Shown one piece after another: positions 10,439-60,797 of a stretch of 64,000 nucleotides of DNA. Every line of letters begins with the position of its first letter. The stretch's first letter is position 1. A program made the position numbers and the translations under genes. Origin of the DNA: a virus. The notes beneath the pieces were generated by a model. The model ran no database searches, had not been told where the DNA came from, and saw only the letters and a program-made list of their open reading frames with translations. Location of the stretch: the IMG/VR virus record IMGVR_UViG_3300043425_000861; one strand, written 5' to 3'.

Positions 10439-10456
10439 TTCTATAAATATTAGTTT

Positions 10457-48354: not shown

Positions 48355-48468
48355 ATAGTTGACTTTTTATGAGAATCATATATATTTATATTCTCAAAGG
48401 TTCTCTTTGTCGATTACCTTTTCGTTTTTTTTCATAAGTAAGTGGGGTTGAACCCACCGAAAGACCTT

Positions 48469-48498
48469 AAAACCCCGACAGACTGTTGGGGTTTTTTA
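48469..48498 (+). terminator. Intrinsic terminator
   Basis: AAAACCCCGACAG-A-CTGTTGGGGTTTTTT. Confidence 0.8.
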
Positions 48499-48547
48499 TT
48501 TCCAAATATTTTGTTTTATTGATTAAATTATGTATATTTACAATAGT

Positions 48548-49005: not shown

Positions 49006-49353
49006 ATGTCAAACTACACACCTAAACCTCCGAGAAAAAGAAGTTCCCAACCCGATATTGTATTAAACATAGAGGGTAGTTTTAACGATTTTACCGATTT
49101 TTACGACGGTAATAAAGAAGTCATTTACAAAAACATTTTAGATTTATTTGAGGCGTTAAAAACCACCAAAAAGAAAAAACTAACTTTATCCGTGGTTGCT
49201 AAAATTAGGGGATTAGAGTGGGATACAGATTTCACCTTTTCCAAAGATGATAAAGAAACCCTACTTAGAGATGTGATGCCGTATTTTGAACAGGTTGAGG
49301 ATTATGAAGTCTGTTCAAAAATAATAAAGTTACACAAGGACTTGACTATTTGA
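49006..49353 (+). CDS. Hypothetical protein
   Basis: 115 aa; UVR-like C-terminus YFEQVEDYEVCSKI. Confidence 0.6.
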   Translation: MSNYTPKPPRKRSSQPDIVLNIEGSFNDFTDFYDGNKEVIYKNILDLFEALKTTKKKKLTLSVVAKIRGLEWDTDFTFSKDDKETLLRDVMPYFEQVEDYEVCSKIIKLHKDLTI

Positions 49354-49377
49354 AAATAATGGTTTAAATTTTATTAG

Positions 49378-49445
49378 TATCGTTAAGAGATACGTTTAGT
49401 TTTTTTGTCAATGAACCCCTGATGTTTCTACATTGGGGGTTTTTT
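49378..49445 (+). ncRNA. Candidate antisense small RNA (hairpin, 19-nt seed, terminator)
   Basis: GTATC/GATAC hairpin, seed identical to plus-strand 53894-53912, then an AACCCCTGATG/CATTGGGGGTT terminator. Confidence 0.55.
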
Positions 49446-49560
49446 ATTTTTAAAAAATTTAATTGTATTTTATAAAGAACTTCTTGTTATAATCCTATTA
49501 TTCTCGGTATTCTAATATTTTTGTTGTATTTTTCTCATACTTATATTAAAAAAATACAAT

Positions 49561-49701
49561 ATGTTAAACTTAATTATCGGAATCTTTGTCTTATGTTCCT
49601 CTTTTGGAATCACTCTATCAAAAATAACATCGGATTATGGTGTCAAAAAAAATAGACAACATATAAAACCTTTAACTATAGACAAAGAAATAGTGTTATA
49701 A
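49561..49701 (+). CDS. Small membrane peptide (46 aa, not in ORF track)
   Basis: MLNLIIGIFVLCSSFGITLSKITSDYGVKKNRQHIKPLTIDKEIVL*. Confidence 0.4.
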   Translation: MLNLIIGIFVLCSSFGITLSKITSDYGVKKNRQHIKPLTIDKEIVL

Positions 49702-51105
49702 TATCATTCTACTACCAATCAAGAAATTACTCAAAAATGGTGAGCCCGGTGCAGTGTTACCACTTAATTTATAATTCACACTAAGGCCAAATCTTTTACT
49801 TATTTTATAATCAAAAGAAGAACCTAATAGGAATCCCATATGTCTATTTACAGTTGTTGTTTGAGCATCACTATTATATGATATAGGTGCAAACATAGTG
49901 AATATCTGTGGTGATATTGATAATTTTCTACTATATTGAAATGGTTTAGTCCAAAACGCAACAACTGATGTTGACATATTATGGTTAAACCTGTTATTTT
50001 CCTCACCCTTCAATAATAAATTAATAAGACCTAAATTGTAACCAAATACTCCTTTCTTTTGTGTTGGTTTAATCCACGTATATCCTAATAAGTTCATATA
50101 GTTACCATTCAAATACGCAAATGCACTTGAGTAAGAATGTATCGCATTTAATTTACCATTTGAAAAATCCATCTTAGTATATCCACCACTAACTATAAAT
50201 GTTTTTAAATCACTCATAATCACCGTATTTGCTGAATAACTTTTATCACCCATTAACGAAGATTTGGACACACCTATCGTCATAGATTGTAACCATCTAC
50301 CATCAGGTGATTCTATCGTTGATAAATCTGAAGAAAGTAACATTGGATTAGATACTGCAGCTTTTTCTTTTTTCTTTTCTTCCTTCTTCTCCTCTTTCTT
50401 TTCTTCTTTTTTCTCTTCCGATTTACTTTCTTCTTTTTTCTCTTCTTTCGATTCTGATTTAGTTTCTTCTTTCTTTTCTTCACTCTTACTTTCGGATTTT
50501 GATTCACTCTTTGTTTCGGATTTAGTTTCGGTTTTTGTTTCCGTCTTACTTTCAGATGAACTACTCGAACTTTGTGATGAAGATGATGAAGAACTACCCC
50601 CACTTTGTGATGAACTACCACTAGCAGGTGGTGGAGTTGAACTACTTTGTGTTGGTGGAGGTGTTGTTGGTGGAGGTGTCGATGCCGCAGAACTTGCAGC
50701 GGCAGAACTCGCGGAACTACTTGCTGCTGAACTTGCAGATGACGATGCTGCAGAACTTGCCGCTGATGAAGCCGCGGACGATGCCGCTGCGGTTGCGGTG
50801 GCGGCTGCAGCATTTGTAACAGCCTGTTGTACTACAGGATTATTTATAACAGGACAAGTTAATGATTCATATGTGGTTTTTGTTGATAACAACCAACTCT
50901 GTACAACCCCCGTTTGAACTTCTAAAGGTGTAAACGTTCTTACTTGACTATAGAAAGATACAGTTGCATACCCATTAATCATAGTTGTGGTTGCTATCTT
51001 TTTTTCGCCAGTACATTTATCAACAAAACTCTGAGTATAGGTTTGACCAAAGAGTTTAATTGATGTTAGTGTCACAAATAAAATTAATAGGGTTATCTTT
51101 TTCAA
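49696..51105 (-). CDS. Exported protein with low-complexity stalk and probable C-terminal outer-membrane beta-barrel
   Basis: Signal peptide; Ala/Ser, Pro and Glu/Lys tracts; about 210 aa of alternating amphipathic strands. Confidence 0.6.
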   Translation of the reverse strand: MKKITLLILFVTLTSIKLFGQTYTQSFVDKCTGEKKIATTTMINGYATVSFYSQVRTFTPLEVQTGVVQSWLLSTKTTYESLTCPVINNPVVQQAVTNAAAATATAAASSAASSAASSAASSSASSAASSSASSAAASSAASTPPPTTPPPTQSSSTPPPASGSSSQSGGSSSSSSSQSSSSSSESKTETKTETKSETKSESKSESKSEEKKEETKSESKEEKKEESKSEEKKEEKKEEKKEEKKKEKAAVSNPMLLSSDLSTIESPDGRWLQSMTIGVSKSSLMGDKSYSANTVIMSDLKTFIVSGGYTKMDFSNGKLNAIHSYSSAFAYLNGNYMNLLGYTWIKPTQKKGVFGYNLGLINLLLKGEENNRFNHNMSTSVVAFWTKPFQYSRKLSISPQIFTMFAPISYNSDAQTTTVNRHMGFLLGSSFDYKISKRFGLSVNYKLSGNTAPGSPFLSNFLIGSRMIL

Positions 51106-51111
51106 CTATTT

Positions 51112-51864
51112 CTATTCTTGTTGTAATCGATTATTATAGTCATCAATACTAAATGGTGTGTACAATGAATATCTAACATTATCAGAATTATTTTTAGTTA
51201 CTTCGTGATAATAATTGTATTTCATATGGTCTAATAAAATAATTTTATTAAAATCAGGAACAAACTCTATAGTTTCATTTTCCTTATGCACTTTTAATAT
51301 TGAACCATCTTCATATGTTCTACCTTTATTTAAAAAAAATAAAATTGTAAAATATCTATTATTTGCCGTAGGACCATCGGTATGGTTCACAATAAATGAA
51401 TCTTTAGGATACACATTAAAATGACCAAATAAAACATCTTTGAATGTCACTTCTTTTTTAAATAAATCAGTTAATATAAATCTAAATGCTTTATCATATA
51501 ATTTAATAATTCTACTATTCATTAATTCATCATCTCTATGTGTTAATAAGAAATTAAAATAATCATAGTCAGTATGAAATAGATTTTTATCATTTACATT
51601 TAAACCAACCTCATCATTTATCTTTGCCAATAATTTAAAATCCTCATAATTTAAAGAATTACTTGTAACCATTTTCTCAAATTCTTCGGGATGTTTATTT
51701 TTCATAGCATCTTGTATTTTTTTAGACCATTGTAAAAATCCCAAAGATGAATTTATTTTACTCAAATCAATTTTAAAATCGGCAACCAATTCTGACAATT
51801 CATTGTATTCGTCAATTGTTAGAACGTCCTTCATTTCATATATTTTCAAATCAAAATCTAACAT
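51112..51864 (-). CDS. 2OG-Fe(II) oxygenase
   Basis: HTD...R..T..FFLN...G...HEV......RYS motifs. Confidence 0.85.
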   Translation of the reverse strand: MLDFDLKIYEMKDVLTIDEYNELSELVADFKIDLSKINSSLGFLQWSKKIQDAMKNKHPEEFEKMVTSNSLNYEDFKLLAKINDEVGLNVNDKNLFHTDYDYFNFLLTHRDDELMNSRIIKLYDKAFRFILTDLFKKEVTFKDVLFGHFNVYPKDSFIVNHTDGPTANNRYFTILFFLNKGRTYEDGSILKVHKENETIEFVPDFNKIILLDHMKYNYYHEVTKNNSDNVRYSLYTPFSIDDYNNRLQQE

Positions 51865-51877
51865 AAAGTGTTTTTAT

Positions 51878-52699
51878 TTACTTGTTATTTAAACCAATTG
51901 ATATTTGATTAAAATTTCTTATCGGGTCCCTATCAACTCTCAACGTAAAAAATTTAAAATCTCTTATAATTCCAAATTTAAATGTTGTGAAATTTGAATT
52001 GGACTTAGGAAACGATATACCACCAAGAGCATCTCTTCCTTGATATCTAATCACTTCATTACCAAATCCAATCATTCCGTGAACACCCATTTTACGAAAC
52101 CTTTTACCTCCACCTAAATAAAATGTACCCTGTTTAATAAAATCATTATTACTTAGTGGAAAATCTACTTCATTAATTCTACCGTATGGGTAATATTGGT
52201 TTTGGTCAATATCATATGACATTGTATAATCTAATATCAAATAACCTTTCTTTTTTCCTGCAATACCCCAAAATGACACTTGTTTATTATTTGTATAACC
52301 AACACCAAATGAAGTATAAACCGATTCACGTCTAATAGTATCTCTTTTACCATTTTCATATACGTGAATTACACTTCTTTGTCTCCACCCAAAGTCATCG
52401 TACCAAATGTAAGGAAATGGTTGATACCAACCCCAATTTCCCCAATAGTACCCAAATTGGTTAGGTCTTCCCCAATTTTGAATTCTAACTCTACCACGAG
52501 GGTCTGGTTGTGATGGTCGCGGTGATTCATTTCTCCATCTACTAACATCATTTCTTTGAGGAACTGATGGTTGTACTCTTGGTGTCTCAACTCTTTGTTG
52601 AGGGGGATTATTTCTCCAAGAACTAACTTGTGAAAATGATAATGTTGTTACAGATAATAATAGGATTACTAAACCTGTGATTAATGAATTTTTTCTCAT
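51878..52699 (-). CDS. Exported protein, probable small outer-membrane beta-barrel
   Basis: Signal peptide, Pro/Arg-rich then Trp/Tyr/Gly-rich segment, C-terminal amphipathic strands. Confidence 0.55.
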   Translation of the reverse strand: MRKNSLITGLVILLLSVTTLSFSQVSSWRNNPPQQRVETPRVQPSVPQRNDVSRWRNESPRPSQPDPRGRVRIQNWGRPNQFGYYWGNWGWYQPFPYIWYDDFGWRQRSVIHVYENGKRDTIRRESVYTSFGVGYTNNKQVSFWGIAGKKKGYLILDYTMSYDIDQNQYYPYGRINEVDFPLSNNDFIKQGTFYLGGGKRFRKMGVHGMIGFGNEVIRYQGRDALGGISFPKSNSNFTTFKFGIIRDFKFFTLRVDRDPIRNFNQISIGLNNK

Positions 52700-52875
52700 A
52701 TACTTTTAGTTAAAATTGTGGTTAATAAATAACCTGTTATTATTGGTGCTGGAGTGAAAATTAAAAAGAAGAATAAAAGTCTCCAAATTAACGGGTCAAT
52801 GTTAGTATGATGACCTAATCCCTCACAAACTCCAAAAAACACTTTATTGTCTCTAACTCTATAAAACTTTTTCAT
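52696..52875 (-). CDS. pspC: PspC-domain membrane protein (59 aa, not in ORF track)
   Basis: MKKFYRVRDNKVFFGVCEGLGHHTNIDPLIWRLLF...GYLL matches the PspC consensus; ATGA overlap with the next gene. Confidence 0.85.
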   Translation of the reverse strand: MKKFYRVRDNKVFFGVCEGLGHHTNIDPLIWRLLFFFLIFTPAPIITGYLLTTILTKSI

Positions 52876-52939
52876 ATCTTATAAATATAAAAAAAGGGGT
52901 CTTTAAACCCCTTCATTTTAAAATATGTCTTTTTTTGTG

Positions 52940-53662
52940 TTATTTTTGAAAAATACCCTTTTTAACCATTCTATCTAAAATTCTAGCACAAGCAATATCT
53001 AATGCTTTTTTAGTTGCTATGGATATTGTGGATTGATTGAATTTTACAGGGTCAACAGTAGCGTCCGATAGAAGAGTTAATTCTCTTGTTGTTTTAGCCT
53101 CACCTAATCCTGAAGCTCCGAAAACTACACCGGTTTCTGCGTTTGTAAAACGAACTTGTAGACCGATACGAGTAACCATTAAGTTTTTTACCCCATCTTT
53201 TAAATTAACAGTTTCATCTTCTGATACTGAATAATCGTAACATTCAACGGTCACAAAATATTCTGCCAAATTAATTTTACCCCTACCATCCAATTTGTTT
53301 TCAGAAATGCCAGCTTGAGATGCTTGGAATTGTTTTACCATTCTGTTTTTTATCTCCGTCTTGTCTTCAGTAAATTTGAAACGATTAAGATTTTCCAAAT
53401 ATTCCATAGTGATATTTGCAACACCTAATCCCACTCTTTTCTCCTTTAACTCAGGATACATTTCATACATCTCGTCTGATATACCCGCCTTTAGAATTTG
53501 AATAGGAATTTGTTTTCCGTCATAATCCAAGAATTGTGAGATGTCAATTGCAGTCTCAAAAGATGCTTTATATTGCTCCGTTTGGGTTTTACCAACTGTT
53601 TGTCCAAATGAGGTTATACTAACAAGTATAATACCTAAAAGTAAAAATATTTTTTTCATCAT
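52940..53662 (-). CDS. CsgG/HfaB-family envelope protein
   Basis: Signal peptide; L...NRF...E...........Q.G........G....AEY.V.....Y...QVR..NAETG.V pattern. Confidence 0.75.
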   Translation of the reverse strand: MMKKIFLLLGIILVSITSFGQTVGKTQTEQYKASFETAIDISQFLDYDGKQIPIQILKAGISDEMYEMYPELKEKRVGLGVANITMEYLENLNRFKFTEDKTEIKNRMVKQFQASQAGISENKLDGRGKINLAEYFVTVECYDYSVSEDETVNLKDGVKNLMVTRIGLQVRFTNAETGVVFGASGLGEAKTTRELTLLSDATVDPVKFNQSTISIATKKALDIACARILDRMVKKGIFQK

Positions 53663-53665
53663 TTT

Positions 53666-53890
53666 TTATTTTGGTCCTTCATACCATATGTTATCGGGGT
53701 CGTTTTTAAAATTACCATCAATTTTCCAACTTACTTTTCTTGATATTTCACCCGCTCTTTCTTCTTGACCAGAAAATTGTAAGTAAACAAAGAATACTTG
53801 TACTGTTAATGCTAATGTAACCCAAATGAGGCCAAGTGCTAAGAAACCTTGCACCATTTTTTCCTCAATTTTTTTTAAAATTGTTGTCAT
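53666..53890 (-). CDS. Small single-TM protein
   Basis: One hydrophobic helix; directly upstream of the CsgG-like gene. Confidence 0.6.
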   Translation of the reverse strand: MTTILKKIEEKMVQGFLALGLIWVTLALTVQVFFVYLQFSGQEERAGEISRKVSWKIDGNFKNDPDNIWYEGPK

Positions 53891-53917
53891 AAATTTAGTT
53901 TTTTTGTCAATGCCCTA

Positions 53918-54193
53918 TTATCCTTCAGATTCTGTTTCAGAATCTAATTTATTTTTGTCGTGTTCAGCTTTTCTATTGATATATTTGTCAACCGATGCAA
54001 TACCAAATGAACCTAAAGTAATCACTAAAAATCCGTTGAAAATATATTCATTGATTAATAATTCCTTACCCATCCAACCTGTTACCAAGTCTACGAATAA
54101 TGCAATTACCATCATTGTGAATGATAAGAATCCAACCACCGATTTTTCGTTAATATCGTTATTGTCTTTAAAAAGTTCTTTAAGAAATCCCAT
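53918..54193 (-). CDS. Two-TM membrane protein (holin-like)
   Basis: Two hydrophobic helices and a charged tail. Confidence 0.55.
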   Translation of the reverse strand: MGFLKELFKDNNDINEKSVVGFLSFTMMVIALFVDLVTGWMGKELLINEYIFNGFLVITLGSFGIASVDKYINRKAEHDKNKLDSETESEG

Positions 54194-54223
54194 AGTTTTG
54201 TTTTTTTGTTGTTTTATTTATTA

Positions 54224-54853
54224 TTAACCTTCCATTTCTTCAGGTTCAGGGTCCTTAATTTTTCCACACTTAAGACATTCCTCATCTCCATCCCCGTCCA
54301 AATCACCCCAAACGTGCTCACATTGTCTATGTGCGAAGTATTCGTCAATCTTACCATCACCATCAAAATCTAAACCATCCATAACACCGTCACCGTCCTC
54401 ATCAACTTCAACACCAACTTTGGTTTCAGGTTTGAAAGGACTTTCGATATGTTGTGGATTATTTGGTTCTGACTGTACATCTACTTGTGATGTTGACTCA
54501 GATAATACCAATGGAGTGGTTGACATAGGTACAATTGGGTTGTTTGGCATATCTGCAGTATTTGATAGTGAAGTACCATCTTCTTCGTCCATTTTTTGAA
54601 CTAACATCTTATCCTTATCAGTATCACTGAACCAATAGTCAATGATTTTACCATAAGAACCAATGAAAGCACCCAACAATAAAAGAAGAAGTTCCTTCCA
54701 CTCACCCTCAATTGCGGATTTATTTAGAATTGCTCCAAATATCCCCATTATGATTATCATAAATCCTCCTAATACGATGGCTGTGATGAACCATCTACGT
54801 TTCATCATATTAGCTAATAATTCTTTAAATCCACCTGATTGTTCTTCTTTCAT
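54224..54853 (-). CDS. Two-TM protein with DxDGDG Ca-binding repeats and a Zn-ribbon-like tail
   Basis: DEDGDG, DFDGDG, DLDGDG; CEHVW...CLKCG. Confidence 0.6.
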   Translation of the reverse strand: MKEEQSGGFKELLANMMKRRWFITAIVLGGFMIIIMGIFGAILNKSAIEGEWKELLLLLLGAFIGSYGKIIDYWFSDTDKDKMLVQKMDEEDGTSLSNTADMPNNPIVPMSTTPLVLSESTSQVDVQSEPNNPQHIESPFKPETKVGVEVDEDGDGVMDGLDFDGDGKIDEYFAHRQCEHVWGDLDGDGDEECLKCGKIKDPEPEEMEG

Positions 54854-54859
54854 ATTAAA

Positions 54860-55180
54860 TTACCATTTTGGGGCTTCCTCTTTAAATTCATCACCTTCTT
54901 TTTTCTTAACCGGTTTTGCAGGTTCTTTAACGGTTTCTTTTTCTTTAATAATAACAGTTTTACCTCCACCACCTGAAGCCTGTTGAGCTTGTTGGTTTGA
55001 GTTTGTAATGTTAATTACAGGTGCTGCTTGTTGTACAGGTGCAGGCTCGTCCCCACCTCCTGTTATTTGAGTTACACCCCAAGTTCCTAAACCCATAACT
55101 GCGGTTGTTGCAACACCGATAATAGTCTTTTTTAAACCCGACCAAGTACCATCATTGTTTTGTTCTAATTCTTCTGACAT
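54860..55180 (-). CDS. Small single-TM protein
   Basis: One TM helix and a low-complexity tail. Confidence 0.55.
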   Translation of the reverse strand: MSEELEQNNDGTWSGLKKTIIGVATTAVMGLGTWGVTQITGGGDEPAPVQQAAPVINITNSNQQAQQASGGGGKTVIIKEKETVKEPAKPVKKKEGDEFKEEAPKW

Positions 55181-55198
55181 TGTATTATATTTAATTTT

Positions 55199-55573
55199 TT
55201 AGTTTATTTTATTAAAATCTGTTATACCCATTTCCTTACCATTCATATCATAAAACCCAATTCTATAGGCTGATGATGGTAAAGCTGATGTATATACTTT
55301 AAGTACGTTATCTCCCACTTTTAAAGTGACATTTTCTTTCGAAACCACTTTATTTGAAATATCAAATATTTTGATTGTTACTGAACCCCCAACCTCACTT
55401 TTAACGTTCATTGCAACTTCAGAAGTTACAAACGCTGATTGTAATTTAATACCTACTGAACTAGCAATTTTTAATTCAGGAGTAACTTCTTGTGCGTTAA
55501 TTGGTAAAATGTCATCTTTATAACACCCCGTAAGGGTAAATAGTACAAATACCGTTAAGATTAGTTTTTTCAT
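55199..55573 (-). CDS. Lipoprotein consisting of a T9SS type-A CTD-like domain
   Basis: LTGC lipobox; VTIKIFDISNKVV......GDN......SALPSSAY.I pattern. Confidence 0.65.
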   Translation of the reverse strand: MKKLILTVFVLFTLTGCYKDDILPINAQEVTPELKIASSVGIKLQSAFVTSEVAMNVKSEVGGSVTIKIFDISNKVVSKENVTLKVGDNVLKVYTSALPSSAYRIGFYDMNGKEMGITDFNKIN

Positions 55574-55574
55574 T

Positions 55575-55919
55575 TTAGTTTAGTGTTAGTTTTGTCTTAC
55601 TTATTTGGGTTTTGTCTTCCGAAGCAAGTATCAAATATAAATACTTCGACATTATGGATTTGGTATATATTTTCTTCACATTTTCGCCGGATTGGCCCCT
55701 AAATTTTTCCCGACTAATAACTTGTCCTGTCTGAACGTCAACAAACGTTAGGGTATAAATTCCCGAGGACGGTAGGTCAAAATATATGGACTGACCGTTA
55801 ATAACAGTACTCTCACCCACAGTAAATATTTTCTCAACAGGAGGTGGGGTAGGTTCTATCTCCATTTTTGTACAGCCCCATAGTAAAATCACAAATATTA
55901 ATATTATTAGTTTTTTCAT
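55575..55919 (-). CDS. Lipoprotein, paralogous CTD-like Ig domain
   Basis: LWGC lipobox; YTLTFVDVQTGQVI......GEN...IYT..I pattern. Confidence 0.55.
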   Translation of the reverse strand: MKKLIILIFVILLWGCTKMEIEPTPPPVEKIFTVGESTVINGQSIYFDLPSSGIYTLTFVDVQTGQVISREKFRGQSGENVKKIYTKSIMSKYLYLILASEDKTQISKTKLTLN

Positions 55920-58210
55920 TATTGTATATTAATTTTTAATGTGGTTCCATTCTTATTTACTGCGTCAGTTGTTGATATTGATGTTAGACCCAAAATACCA
56001 TTAATTCCAATTAATGGAACGAATGTAATTTTATATTCGGTTGTTTTATCCAACGTAGTTGAACCGTCTGTTATCAATGAACCTAATGTTACATATGAAC
56101 CCCTGTCAGTCCCAAAATTGGTCGGATTTCCTTTTGTTAGAAATTCTACTTTTTCAAATCCTAACGCGGTTTTATCATAATTTAATTGAAATTGAGTTCC
56201 AACCACTTCTTGTTGTAATGGGTCCAATGATATTGTTACAACCACCTTACCACCTATATTTTCACTCATTAGATAAGCGTTTATTTGATTAGAAACTGAT
56301 GAACTCATAGTTGATAAACTCATAGTTCTAATTGAATTGATTGCAACACCACTTGTTGTTTGTCGTGCTGAGTGAGATAAGTTTACATCACCTACCCAAG
56401 TCACATTTACGTTGTAAGTGTTATTCAACGTACCACTATTCAAATTAAATGGGTACAAACTTCTTGTTGAGTTAAATTGATTACTCCAATTGGATTTAGT
56501 TATTGCATCATATTCAGTTTTACCATATAATTTCAACAAATAAGTCAAAGTAGAATATTGTGTTAGCGGTGCAACCCCTGTTAAATGTTGTAATAATTTG
56601 TAAGTATCTGCTTCATTAAAAATACCATTACCATCTACATCTGCGTTCATAAATTGAATACCCGATGTAAATTCTAATCCGCTTTGGTCTCCAAATATCC
56701 CACCATTTGATAATTCCTTAAATGCTATAAACACATCCGATACAGTTACAATACTATTATATAAAGTGTTTAATTCGGTTTGATTGGTATATGATAAATC
56801 AATCCCGTGTTGTTTAAATACCATATTTGGTGTGAATGTAAATTCCGCACTTAATCCCCAAAAAAATCCTGCTCGTCTTATGTTTGACGTAAATGATGAA
56901 CCCGCGAAATTAAGTTCTGTTGGTGTATAAATCCAATATGCCGCCCAAGTCCCATCATCCCATTGATATGTTACAGGTCCATTCCATAAATCAAATAATT
57001 GTAAATTTGTGACACCACTTGCTGAAGTACCTTGTGGAAACTCTCTTTTATCAATTAAAATTTGATATCTTTGATTTTGAGATTCGTAATCATATACGAC
57101 ACACCATTCTACTTGCCCACCTGTTGTTGTTGCTTTAACACCACCACCATTTATTTTTGTGGTATCTAAATCGTTTGTTAAATCAACTTTACCTAATCCA
57201 CTTATCGCTCTTGATGTATTAGTTGTTGTTCCCCACACATTGTTTACAAAAGTATTTGCCTTTGCTGTAAATTTTGTTTCATCCACATTACCACCAAAGT
57301 CAAAATTAAATCGTGCAGTTAAAACTTCTCCGTTTGAATGTGTTACTGAATTTGTATAGAATTCTGTAAATGTTGCGTTATCAGGATTAGTCCAAGTTCC
57401 AAATTCAACCACATATGGATTTACAAAATTTGGTGGTAAGTCATTCCATTGAGAACCATTCCATTTGGTTACCGCATAATCTTCATTTCCACTATTATTT
57501 GGTTCACCCCCTGCCCAGTTGTTGTATTGTCCAACTATGTTTCCAGCGGTTTGGCCGTTTGATGTTTTTATTAGCGTACCGTTTTCAGGGCCAGCATCGA
57601 TTCTCCATTGTCCTTCAACTACTTCATCAGTTAAAGCAAACCATATTTGATTTTGTGGAACGTTGTTGTAAATAAACGCGTCTTCATCAGCAGATGTGAT
57701 TGTCACCAAATATCCAGTCTGTCCTTTAAATGTTTGTTGTGATGAAAGTGTTTTAGCATTAGGGTACGTTGCGCCGGTAGATACTGGCCTATAAAAGTGT
57801 CCGTTTACACCATTATAGAAATATCCTGTTGGGTTTACGGTTGTCGCCACCGATAATGTAACATTACCCTTTACTGACCCGGTATTTACTTTTAAAGATG
57901 CTAATGCTGTATTGATATTAGCCATAGTCCCCGTTACAACTAAACGAGTTTTATTACCTGACAATGTGAATCCACTAGCTGCGGTTAAAGCTGTTGTTGT
58001 GTTTAATACGAATGTCGTACCTGACGGCGGATTTACTAAACTGATAGATGCTAATAGTGTTGCAGTGGAACTAAATCCGTTTAGAACAAATCCACTGGCG
58101 TCTTGTCCTGCTGTGGATTGTAAAAAAGATTTAGAGTCCGGAGCAGATACACTCTGTCCGAACCCTAAAAATGAAATTAGTAAAAAACATATTACTAATA
58201 GTTTCTTCAT
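55919..58210 (-). CDS. Exported C-type-lectin/dockerin-like/cohesin-like protein
   Basis: Signal peptide; GYLVTITSADE..F, WFAL.D...EGQW, YNNWAGGEPNN..NED....W...QWND (CTLD); ADVDGNGIFNEAD (dockerin-like); VGTQFQLNYD...L.F (cohesin-like). Confidence 0.7.
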   Translation of the reverse strand: MKKLLVICFLLISFLGFGQSVSAPDSKSFLQSTAGQDASGFVLNGFSSTATLLASISLVNPPSGTTFVLNTTTALTAASGFTLSGNKTRLVVTGTMANINTALASLKVNTGSVKGNVTLSVATTVNPTGYFYNGVNGHFYRPVSTGATYPNAKTLSSQQTFKGQTGYLVTITSADEDAFIYNNVPQNQIWFALTDEVVEGQWRIDAGPENGTLIKTSNGQTAGNIVGQYNNWAGGEPNNSGNEDYAVTKWNGSQWNDLPPNFVNPYVVEFGTWTNPDNATFTEFYTNSVTHSNGEVLTARFNFDFGGNVDETKFTAKANTFVNNVWGTTTNTSRAISGLGKVDLTNDLDTTKINGGGVKATTTGGQVEWCVVYDYESQNQRYQILIDKREFPQGTSASGVTNLQLFDLWNGPVTYQWDDGTWAAYWIYTPTELNFAGSSFTSNIRRAGFFWGLSAEFTFTPNMVFKQHGIDLSYTNQTELNTLYNSIVTVSDVFIAFKELSNGGIFGDQSGLEFTSGIQFMNADVDGNGIFNEADTYKLLQHLTGVAPLTQYSTLTYLLKLYGKTEYDAITKSNWSNQFNSTRSLYPFNLNSGTLNNTYNVNVTWVGDVNLSHSARQTTSGVAINSIRTMSLSTMSSSVSNQINAYLMSENIGGKVVVTISLDPLQQEVVGTQFQLNYDKTALGFEKVEFLTKGNPTNFGTDRGSYVTLGSLITDGSTTLDKTTEYKITFVPLIGINGILGLTSISTTDAVNKNGTTLKINIQ

Positions 58211-58211
58211 A

Positions 58212-59861
58212 TTACTCGACGATTAAATCAACTTTATTTCCTTTCGCATCAACAGCATCAGATAAAACAAAGTAGAATAAACCGGCGGTATTTGTTAAAG
58301 TTGTTTTTGGTGTGAATACCAACTTATACGGAGTTCCTGTTTTAATTCTCGCAGTTTTCAATTGGTCAATAGAACCGAAAGTTAATCTACCGTCTTTATG
58401 TGTTGAAAAGTTTGTTATTGTTGAACCCGCGTCAAATATCACATTATCCAATGTTAATTTTGATTCGTCATAACTCATAATAACTTCCAATCCTGCCAAT
58501 CCTTCTTTTGTTAAATTTGTGGTTAATACAACTTTGCCATTTTCCAAAGTAGATGTTACACTCAACTTAGCAGTTTCTACCGCTTCAGTTTTATATGACA
58601 TTGATTGTGTTGATATAGTCGACATAGTACCAATTGAATTTACTGAGTTTGTGTATTGTCCGGCACTTATTCTACTAGCAATTACTGCTGGGTCTGATGA
58701 ATGTGACCAGTTTAAGTCACCACCCCACGCGTACACCGCATACACTTCTTTAACAGGAGTATCAATTGTAACTTTATTTTTAATGTTACCATCTAACCAA
58801 TCTTGATTTAATAAACCACTATGCCATCTCCAAGAAGTTGATGTTTGTGTTGGTATAAATGCATTTGTGGAAACATCTTGACCCATAACATATGCGAATG
58901 AATAATATGAATCCGATTCATTAAATACGTTATCGTTTTTAGTGATATTACCAACCTTCTTCTCTAAATTTGGATAAGTGAAGAAGTTCGCAGTTCCTGA
59001 TATATCTGTTTGTGAATGTCCTAAAAACGCTTTGTATGCGTCTGAAACAGTAATGACATTATTCATCCAAGCTTTTTGTGAGGCTGGACTAACAAACACA
59101 CCCAAACTATCACCAACCTTTACTTGTGTTGTAAATAACGCTTCACCTGTTGCATCTAAAGGTAATTGAGCAATCGGTTGTTGTGACCAATCAATAGTAC
59201 CACTACCATCCGTTTTTAATCTCATTAATTGAACATTATGGTCGGTAATTGTATATCCTTGTGGGAATAGAACCTTTACTTTAAATTGTGACGTATTACC
59301 AAGAACACCACTTAATGATATATTTGTTGAACTTCTTGTTATTGGTGATATATTAACAGACGAATCGTTAATTGCATATGACAAATCCAATTTATGAATA
59401 TCATTATATGTGTTTTGGTCTTTTAATATAAATTTTTGAGTTGCAATATCACCATTAATTGATGCGTCAGTTCTTTGAACAGTTAATTGCCCGACATTCC
59501 AATCATTATTTACTGAATATCCCCAAGGAGTTGTGGTGTATTGTGCATATAATTGTGTTTCAGCAACATTTGGTGCCGGTGTAAACTTATAGTTATTCCA
59601 ACCTGTATAGAATGTTTGTGTTGAACTACCTTGAGTGAATACAGTACTGTTCGGTACCATAGACAACGCCTTATTATTAAAAGAATATCTCAACCAAAAA
59701 TATCTTGGTGTTGTTGTTCCTCTAGTTACAGTGTACTTAACTGTTAATGTATCACCAACCTTTAATCCCGTTGTTGGGGTGATAGTTTGATTAACCGTTA
59801 ATTGTGCAAATGATGAAATGGTGGATAATAAAAATACACCGATAATTAATAATTTTTTCAT
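58212..59861 (-). CDS. Exported cohesin-like/dockerin-like/cohesin-like protein
   Basis: Signal peptide; KVGDTLTV...RYSFNNKAL; ITVSDAY...FNESD...GDLNWSHS; LAGLEVIMSYDESKLTL. The C-terminal region is paralogous to 55919-58210. Confidence 0.6.
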   Translation of the reverse strand: MKKLLIIGVFLLSTISSFAQLTVNQTITPTTGLKVGDTLTVKYTVTRGTTTPRYFWLRYSFNNKALSMVPNSTVFTQGSSTQTFYTGWNNYKFTPAPNVAETQLYAQYTTTPWGYSVNNDWNVGQLTVQRTDASINGDIATQKFILKDQNTYNDIHKLDLSYAINDSSVNISPITRSSTNISLSGVLGNTSQFKVKVLFPQGYTITDHNVQLMRLKTDGSGTIDWSQQPIAQLPLDATGEALFTTQVKVGDSLGVFVSPASQKAWMNNVITVSDAYKAFLGHSQTDISGTANFFTYPNLEKKVGNITKNDNVFNESDSYYSFAYVMGQDVSTNAFIPTQTSTSWRWHSGLLNQDWLDGNIKNKVTIDTPVKEVYAVYAWGGDLNWSHSSDPAVIASRISAGQYTNSVNSIGTMSTISTQSMSYKTEAVETAKLSVTSTLENGKVVLTTNLTKEGLAGLEVIMSYDESKLTLDNVIFDAGSTITNFSTHKDGRLTFGSIDQLKTARIKTGTPYKLVFTPKTTLTNTAGLFYFVLSDAVDAKGNKVDLIVE

Positions 59862-59863
59862 TT

Positions 59864-60397
59864 TTACTTTTTAATTGAAAACACTTTATTTATTAAAGAT
59901 TCACACGTCTTTTTAATCGCGGATGAAAGAGCTTGTTGATTTATTTTATCACTACCTTCATCGGTTATTAATGTTGATGTCGAGATTTCTGAGCTTGATT
60001 CTTCAGCAACAGCCTCTTTGATTTTCTTACCTTCTTTAGTTGTTAATTTACCTCTCATTACCACCAAAGTTTCTTCTTTGTCTGAATGAAATACTGAGAT
60101 ATTAGTCTTGGTTTTATTAACATCAAAAAATAAGATTTCAGCACTAAAAATCAAATCAGCCTTAGTGATGTCTTCGACAATTAGATAATCCTTATCTTGT
60201 AATATTTCTTGGAAAATGTTTTTAGCACCAAAAGCTAAATTTCGATTATTAGCCATTTTACCAACAATCACTTTGTTCTCTACTTTATCCACGTAGACGG
60301 ATTTTGGGTCCTCAATCGGTTGAAAAATCCTTACCAATAAGCCCACGAATAGGATGTACAGTATCGGTAAGAGCGATACGTTTAGTCTGTTTGTCAT
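59864..60397 (-). CDS. Membrane-anchored CsgG/LptE-like alpha/beta protein
   Basis: N-terminal TM; VYVD.VEN...L.FG.KN..QEIL...ADL....EI..F; C-terminal INQQALSSAIKK parallels FNQSTISIATKK of the CsgG-like gene. Confidence 0.55.
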   Translation of the reverse strand: MTNRLNVSLLPILYILFVGLLVRIFQPIEDPKSVYVDKVENKVIVGKMANNRNLAFGAKNIFQEILQDKDYLIVEDITKADLIFSAEILFFDVNKTKTNISVFHSDKEETLVVMRGKLTTKEGKKIKEAVAEESSSEISTSTLITDEGSDKINQQALSSAIKKTCESLINKVFSIKK

Positions 60398-60501
60398 ACT
60401 AATAAATATGACAATTGTCACTATTAGTATAAACTTTATATTATTTTAATTTGGCAATATTGCCGTGTTTTTAGATGTTAAAAAAATATTTTTAAACTTT
60501 T

Positions 60502-60533
60502 ATTGATTATATACATATTTATTAGTATCTTTG
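60502..60533 (+). promoter_or_regulatory. Bacteroidota-type promoter of tRNA cluster 1 leader
   Basis: ATTG (60502-05), 20 nt, TATCTTTG (60526-33). Confidence 0.6.
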
Positions 60534-60724: not shown

Positions 60725-60797
60725 GGGCCGGATGTCAATGGCAGACCACCTGATTTGCAATCAGAGTGAAAGGGTTCGATTCCCTACGTGTCCACCA
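60725..60797 (+). tRNA. tRNA-Ala(TGC)
   Basis: Loop TTTGCAA, G3:U70, encoded CCA; imperfect acceptor stem. Confidence 0.75.

Follow-up and report, generated by a model that had tools for sequence, protein, structure and literature searches.

The junction between two converging gene blocks of this phage genome probably encodes a trans-acting antisense small RNA, here called S, with its own promoter and a terminator that it holds in common with the upstream gene. The best overall explanation of the comparative data, and one that we consider fairly likely, is that S is a small RNA gene of environmental T4-like jumbo phages and is antisense to the start of an operon for envelope proteins. The locus lies in a 64,000-nt stretch of the IMG/VR record IMGVR_UViG_3300043425_000861 (the window), which is AT-rich (32% GC) and carries an array of 18 tRNA genes; its protein-coding genes include those for a ClpB-like ATPase and for a large terminase of the T4 type. 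The nearest isolates by terminase are Flavobacterium and Microcystis phages, at 27–29% identity, and a megablast search with 17 kb gave no useful match among known phages. Related contigs in IMG/VR number more than 500, and some exceed 300 kb. In the window, the plus-strand genes end at 49353, and a minus-strand block of exported and membrane proteins, running from 60397 down to 49696, converges on them.

S is a conserved non-coding unit of about 70 nt, present in more than 20 related contigs or lineages of freshwater T4-like jumbo phages (Table 1). It is preceded in 24 of 24 distinct S-bearing lineages by TTGAC(A/T), a spacer of exactly 17 nt and TAnnnT, while the sequence of the spacer is free to vary. 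The final codons of gene 49006-49353 overlap with the -35 box, and the form of the promoter is invariant although the 115-aa protein encoded upstream drops to 32% identity between lineages. The near-consensus early promoter of T4-like phages has the same form (PMC4122927). The promoter of S is a prediction drawn from this conservation.

Table 1. Features of the S locus, its predicted targets in the window and the analogous unit S2
Feature	Position	Strand	Details and basis
Predicted S RNA, about 70 nt	49375..49447	+	Start inferred; covariance model, fold
Promoter-like site of S, sigma-70-type	49342..49370	+	-35 TTGACT 49342-49347, 17-nt spacer, -10 TAAATT 49365-49370
Hairpin 1	49377..49393	+	5 bp in the window (49377-49381 with 49389-49393); up to 9-11 bp in relatives
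Single-stranded linker/seed, 19 nt (copy 1), U-rich	49395..49413	+	Repeat search, fold
Intrinsic terminator	49413..49448	+	13-bp stem (49413-49442) and U run; common to gene 49006-49353 and S
Copy 2, candidate secondary target, lineage-specific	53894..53912	minus	-22 to -4 of the 74-aa gene
Gene for 74-aa small membrane protein	53666..53890	minus	Directly upstream of CsgG-like candidate 52940-53662
Primary predicted target	60360..60397	minus	ATG and initial ~12 codons of the first operon gene; complementarity, co-variation
First operon gene, 177 aa	59864..60397	minus	Signal-anchor N-terminus; LptE/lipoprotein-like lead
Convergent operon of exported and membrane proteins	49696..60397	minus	5' end matches S
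Promoter-like 15-mer with ATATTTAT	60396..60410	minus	Ends at ATG of gene 59864-60397
S2	L032:20500-20660	minus strand of locus	Also in L038, L033, L043, L062, L130, L131, L124

Every homologue of S folds as a hairpin, a U-rich linker and a strong terminator, and the fold in the window has a z-score of -4.5 against shuffled sequences. Hairpin 1 shows changes on both sides at four pairs, and several of its U-G pairs are valid on the plus strand only. The terminator, the only one found after the stop codon of gene 49006-49353, has compensatory changes at nine of its 13 pairs. A covariance model built on the unit detects one copy per locus on a constant strand; its sole match in the window, at 49371-49445, scores 75.5 bits. 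In the model alignment, 82% of cells are paired (69.5% in shuffles), changes on both sides occur at 13 of 24 pairs, and the covariation score is 0.346, compared with 0.141, and with at most 0.113 for slid partners; because the alignment was fitted to the covariance model, these values somewhat favour the structure. RNAalifold on a plain MAFFT alignment, in which the hairpin arms were misaligned, recovered three terminator pairs only, and the covariance-model alignment was used in its place. A search of Rfam at S returned no family with an E-value up to 1. As expected of an sRNA, the unit holds no conserved ORF. A mini-ORF on the reverse strand was considered and rejected, as its start codon is lost in several lineages and its frame is broken by indels.

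The segment that would serve as the seed of S was recognised through a repeat. A reading of the sequence alone had pointed to an identical 19-mer on the plus strand at 49395-49413 and 53894-53912, with the first copy unpaired between a small hairpin and a plus-strand terminator. Both observations hold: the 19-mer occurs exactly twice in the window, and copy 1 is unpaired at that place in the minimum-free-energy fold. If a coding tandem repeat is set aside, the window has no other dispersed exact direct repeat of at least 17 nt. Some 19-mer repeat nevertheless arises in about 8% of windows simulated with an order-3 Markov model, and so the 19-mer by itself is merely suggestive. The repeat search also revealed, at 60360-60396, an overlooked third copy, which is imperfect and about 37 nt long. 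On the minus strand this copy consists of the ATG and the first ~12 codons of the 177-aa gene 59864-60397, and, given one indel, it resembles copy 1 over some 37 nt, including the small hairpin. The third copy, together with the relatives, rules out chance as a full explanation; chance is excluded for the S family, although not fully for the target of the 19-mer.

S lies 11 kb from the first gene of the envelope operon and is antisense to the opening ~38 nt of that gene, AUG included. Nearly all of S outside the terminator, that is, hairpin 1 and the U-rich linker, is complementary to 60360-60397, and the duplex of the window's S with the operon 5' region has a computed energy of -40.6 kcal/mol. 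Every relative that has both sites shows, at its operon start, a match to the reverse complement of its own S (types A, B, C1-C3, E, G and F), and the two sites carry common lineage-specific differences in at least seven sequence types. Permutation tests covered all lineage pairs, setting S against the operon 5' region. The trace of own-genome alignment scores was 397, a value reached by 0 of 200,000 permutations; in the opposite-orientation control the scores had a mean of 16.5 and a maximum of 26. Duplex energies gave the same outcome (0 of 200,000), with a mean of -32.6 kcal/mol within a genome, -20.3 kcal/mol for heterologous pairs and -12 kcal/mol for the sense control. Since the lineages are related, the p-values of these tests overstate independence. 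It is a clade-specific signal all the same, and even close relatives (L019 vs L026) show co-changes of single bases. In types E and F, the contiguous match between S and its target is just 11–12 nt, with indels. Tolerance of G-U pairs at mismatches is neutral, with four transitions tolerated and five not.

The operon start also shows on which level the conservation acts. The matched segment codes for the N-terminal end of the 177-aa orthologue in some lineages, while in others a gene resembling the 74-aa gene has been inserted and the segment forms an untranslated leader 65–100 nt upstream of it. The conservation is therefore at the nucleotide rather than the peptide level. In several lineages (L019, L026, L065, L071, L078 and others), a paralogue of the 74-aa gene lies directly before the 177-aa orthologue, which itself lacks the first ~30 residues. 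It seems that a module made up of a small membrane protein and a CsgG/LptE-like lipoprotein was duplicated, and that the small gene at the operon start was lost in the window. The language-model neighbours of the 177-aa protein point to an LptE/lipoprotein-like fold for it, which serves as a lead only; the target proteins had no match in Pfam or PHROGs, and BLASTP found no paralogy between the 177-aa and 240-aa proteins. In another lineage, five operon genes (L067:1061, 7887, 9543, 10781 and 11915) start with the same 11–15 nt (ATG ACA AAA AT...), and this common gene start also matches the S variant of that lineage.

A further motif helps to predict the 5' end of the operon transcript. At least seven genes in the window have ATATTTAT 3–11 nt ahead of their ATG, with motif starts at 10450, 13539, 13555, 16426, 27704, 52888, 60409 and 60515; the one at 52888 is directly 3' of a terminator. 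This suggests that ATATTTAT marks a second, phage-specific class of promoter, which would give rise to leaderless mRNAs or mRNAs with a very short leader. Annotation with PHROGs, sought for the temporal class of the genes behind the motif, returned none. At the envelope operon, the complementarity to S begins 1–6 nt past the conserved motif, from which we infer that it starts at the predicted 5' end of the operon transcript.

A sister clade that lacks S contains an unrelated unit, S2, which is encoded 14–28 kb away from the start of the operon and on the other strand. S2 consists of a TTGAC(A/T)-17-TAT(T/A)(A/C)T promoter, a long hairpin and a U run, in this order. In its apical part, S2 is antisense to the 177-aa orthologue from the transcript start through +9, and this antisense segment co-varies with its target. 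The sequence of the outer stem has been wholly replaced between sublineages, with pairing kept. Directly after S2 comes an 84-aa gene, which the window lacks.

In the proposed mechanism, S would be transcribed from its own sigma-70-type, T4-early-like promoter, predicted from conservation, and transcription would end at the intrinsic terminator common with gene 49006-49353. The operon mRNA is predicted to start at the AUG or a few bases before it, and would thus be leaderless or have a very short leader. S would pair with the extreme 5' end of this mRNA, including the AUG; the start codon would be hidden and initiation blocked, and the duplex of S and mRNA could mark the 5' end for double-strand-specific cleavage. 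The outcome would be a lowered or delayed synthesis of envelope proteins. In the lineage of the window, the linker could also pair with positions -22 to -4 of the 74-aa gene over 19 perfect nucleotides. Occlusion of the start codon, with or without cleavage of the duplex, is the most likely outcome of pairing, but S may also act in the opposite direction, as an activator that protects the 5' end.

It is tempting to speculate that pairing with the extreme 5' end of one leaderless or short-leader mRNA, that of the operon for exported CsgG/LptE-like and lipoprotein genes, has evolved in two structurally unrelated early sRNAs, S and S2. The start of the operon would then be a conserved post-transcriptional checkpoint, and no co-evolving system of sRNA and target would have been described before in T4-like jumbo phages, the hosts of which are possibly Bacteroidota. 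We hold this broader view tentatively and put its chances slightly below even. To our knowledge, Bacteroidota lack Hfq. The phage base-pairing RNAs known to us that act in trans on the phage's own genes come mainly from temperate coliphages, and we know of almost nothing of the kind in large lytic T4-like phages or uncultured freshwater phages. In the present case, comparative genomics alone has defined an RNA of ~70 nt, an mRNA target of ~38 nt, natural 'compensatory mutants' and an independent analogue in a sister clade. S is thus a directly testable case of co-evolution between an sRNA and its target and of silencing at a leaderless or short-leader 5' end, and it suggests that an operon with which the phage probably remodels the envelope of its host is under tight control.

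Among phage RNAs, the closest functional likeness is to the c4 RNA of P1 and P7, a short structured RNA whose exposed segments pair with repeated sites covering a ribosome-binding region (Citron and Schuster 1990, as reviewed in PMC12197685). Like c4, S would be a phage-encoded structured RNA acting at a distance on the phage's own mRNA. However, c4 is processed from the very transcript that it regulates and controls immunity (icd/ant) in a temperate phage (PMC12197685), whereas S has a promoter and a terminator of its own, is encoded on the opposite strand at 11 kb from its target, and belongs to a jumbo phage that is T4-like and probably lytic. S and c4 are not similar in sequence. OOP of lambda and sar of P22 are short, terminator-ended cis-antisense RNAs that block a translation start or destabilise an mRNA (PMC12197685). 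These RNAs overlap their targets, while S is encoded 4.5 and 11 kb away from its candidate targets, and its complementarity to the main one is imperfect; with such distances and no overlap, S was rejected as a cis-encoded antisense RNA.

The T4-like phages also have the PeSL cassette, which consists of a stem-loop, an early promoter, a Shine-Dalgarno site and a gene start (PMC2839356, PMC4122927). The S locus shares with it a near-consensus early promoter with a 17-nt spacer, adjoining stem-loops, small variable genes and repeated copies able to recombine. S differs in consisting of a promoter, non-coding hairpins and a terminator, in being present as a single copy, and in its complementarity to a distant gene start. 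Assignment of S to the PeSL cassettes was rejected, since coding sequence lies upstream of the promoter, and hairpins and a terminator, with no gene start, lie downstream.

In architecture, S is closest to a class of bacterial small RNAs. Enterobacterial 3'-UTR sRNAs of type I, among them DapZ and MicL, have their own promoter inside the upstream gene and a terminator common with the mRNA; sRNAs of the DapZ/MicL type are Hfq-dependent and act on host regulons. S has the same arrangement, with its -35 box (49342-49347) inside the upstream coding sequence 49006-49353, a position in the 3' UTR, the terminator of the mRNA and a single-stranded seed just before that terminator. Unlike DapZ and MicL, its predicted target is the start of a phage operon rather than host regulons. 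S also has the features of a trans-encoded base-pairing sRNA: a predicted promoter, a terminator and structure, no ORF, a seed against an initiation region, and co-variation, in this case with the operon start. By these comparisons, S resembles c4 and other phage antisense RNAs in function and a type I 3'-UTR sRNA in architecture, and its comparative signal is unusually clear.

The three copies could instead be direct repeats at the DNA level that involve no RNA pairing, either relics of a duplicated gene start or leader kept alike by conversion, or PeSL-like recombination sites on either side of the operon module. All copies are indeed direct and on one strand, two of them bracket the operon, and S in reverse complement reads like the start of the first operon gene, cut short (TTG/ATG ACA AAA ...). 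Several gene starts and a promoter-plus-start segment are duplicated in one lineage (L067), the mismatches between S and its target show no G-U bias, and PeSL-mediated shuffling is documented in T4-like phages (PMC2839356, PMC4122927). However, the conserved promoter, the covarying hairpin and the terminator are all on the strand opposite to the 'gene start' reading, and the locus does not have the PeSL architecture. The homology is short (25–45 nt) and spans 11 kb, yet it follows lineage changes across deep divergence, while synteny (tRNA array, operon, S and upstream gene) is constant, with no presence or absence of the module. In both S and S2, the boundaries of the homology coincide with the predicted start of the target transcript and with the transcribed part. 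Because S and S2 are unrelated, have the same complementarity and are both bounded by a predicted transcript start, DNA duplication alone is hard to accept, and we regard this explanation as unlikely. An even less probable alternative, to which we give very little weight, is that S and the operon 5' end are two sites for one DNA- or RNA-binding protein, similar to the nut sites of lambda. Both sites carry a small hairpin in the window, and lambdoid phages offer a precedent of paired sites that co-vary with a regulator. Such a shared site is improbable because, on their own transcripts, the two sites are complementary and not identical. In addition, the likeness extends base by base over 25–40 nt with many lineage-specific variants, the hairpin on the target side is not conserved (type B), and S2 has the same complementarity with a different structure.

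Pairing of S with the operon start, the reading that we prefer, leaves room for the possibility that, with S itself a genuine small RNA or terminator module, the 19-nt match before the 74-aa gene is non-functional, a recent local copy or a product of chance. This gene was the target put forward by the sequence-only reading, which proposed a plus-strand antisense RNA acting in trans on a translation start of the operon and thereby, as a conjecture, timing expression of the pore genes. The kind of element finds good comparative support, but the conserved, co-varying target is gene 59864-60397 and not 53666-53890. The geometry is as described: copy 2 covers -22 to -4 of the minus-strand ORF 53666-53890 (ATG 53890-53888), and a plus-strand transcript from 4.5 kb away would be complementary to it over 19 of 19 nt. 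The ORF is also adjacent to 52940-53662, as claimed, while the 'CsgG-like' label of the latter is a lead only, drawn from language-model neighbours of the 240-aa protein in CsgG/HfaB/LpoB clusters at 0.93–0.94; Pfam and PHROGs gave nothing for it. When the seed of S was set against 72 gene starts in the window, the 74-aa gene formed the best duplex (-25.0 kcal/mol), followed by the operon start (-20.7 kcal/mol) and, in third place, a start at -13.1 kcal/mol, compared with a mean of -8.2 and a standard deviation of 3.3 kcal/mol. This places the 74-aa site about 5 standard deviations from the mean, on the strand compatible with antisense pairing and at exactly -22 to -4, all of which argues against a non-functional match. 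The site is, however, limited to the lineage of the window (L001, L092) and, in degraded form, L083. Initiation regions are A-rich and the seed is U-rich, and the frequency of 19-mer repeats in simulated windows points in the same direction. Co-variation of seed and target, which had been suggested as a check, is seen at the operon start but not here: in L083 the target site alone has changed, keeping 14 + 5 nt, with S unchanged and no compensating change. The first 14 nt are kept in a 201-nt region that is 78% identical between the window and L083, a pattern that is weak evidence of constraint on the site.

The best internal matches of S differ between lineages, types A, D and G matching at the start of a 91-aa gene and type G at a lipoprotein gene; in type B, the start of the 74-aa gene matches S over 12 nt through another segment. 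The first of these observations favours a non-functional site, while the type B match speaks against it. The 91-aa gene start was dismissed as a general target, as it matches in those three types only. These other internal matches may be real secondary targets, or may merely reflect common A-rich starts and signal-peptide codons. On balance, a non-functional 74-aa site is quite possible, although we lean somewhat away from it, and in the lineage of the window the sequence upstream of 53666-53890 is a plausible secondary target at roughly even odds.

Several further elements were observed around the S locus and the operon. Just past the ClpB-like gene, 48359-48500 (+) may be another small RNA: a sigma-70-like promoter (TTGACT-16-TATATT) and a strong terminator (48469-48495) enclose some 100 nt that contain no ORF. 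Duplex scanning brought up no convincing target for it, only unnatural long-loop structures. Downstream of S, a 46-aa membrane ORF with its own conserved upstream region occupies 49455-49701 (+). It is present in L083, L022, L002 and L075 and absent in L001, L067 and L074, and the cassette has apparently been inserted between S and the end of the operon. At the other end, the 15-mer with ATATTTAT before the 177-aa gene has a second exact copy at 60514-60528 (+), and the two copies face outward in the divergent region 60396-60528. This region separates the envelope operon from the tRNA array, and the copy at 60514-60528 precedes the leader of the array. Further along, at 60725-60794 (+), the Rfam tRNA model scores 29.7 bits against a threshold of 29, at a place where ARAGORN calls no tRNA.
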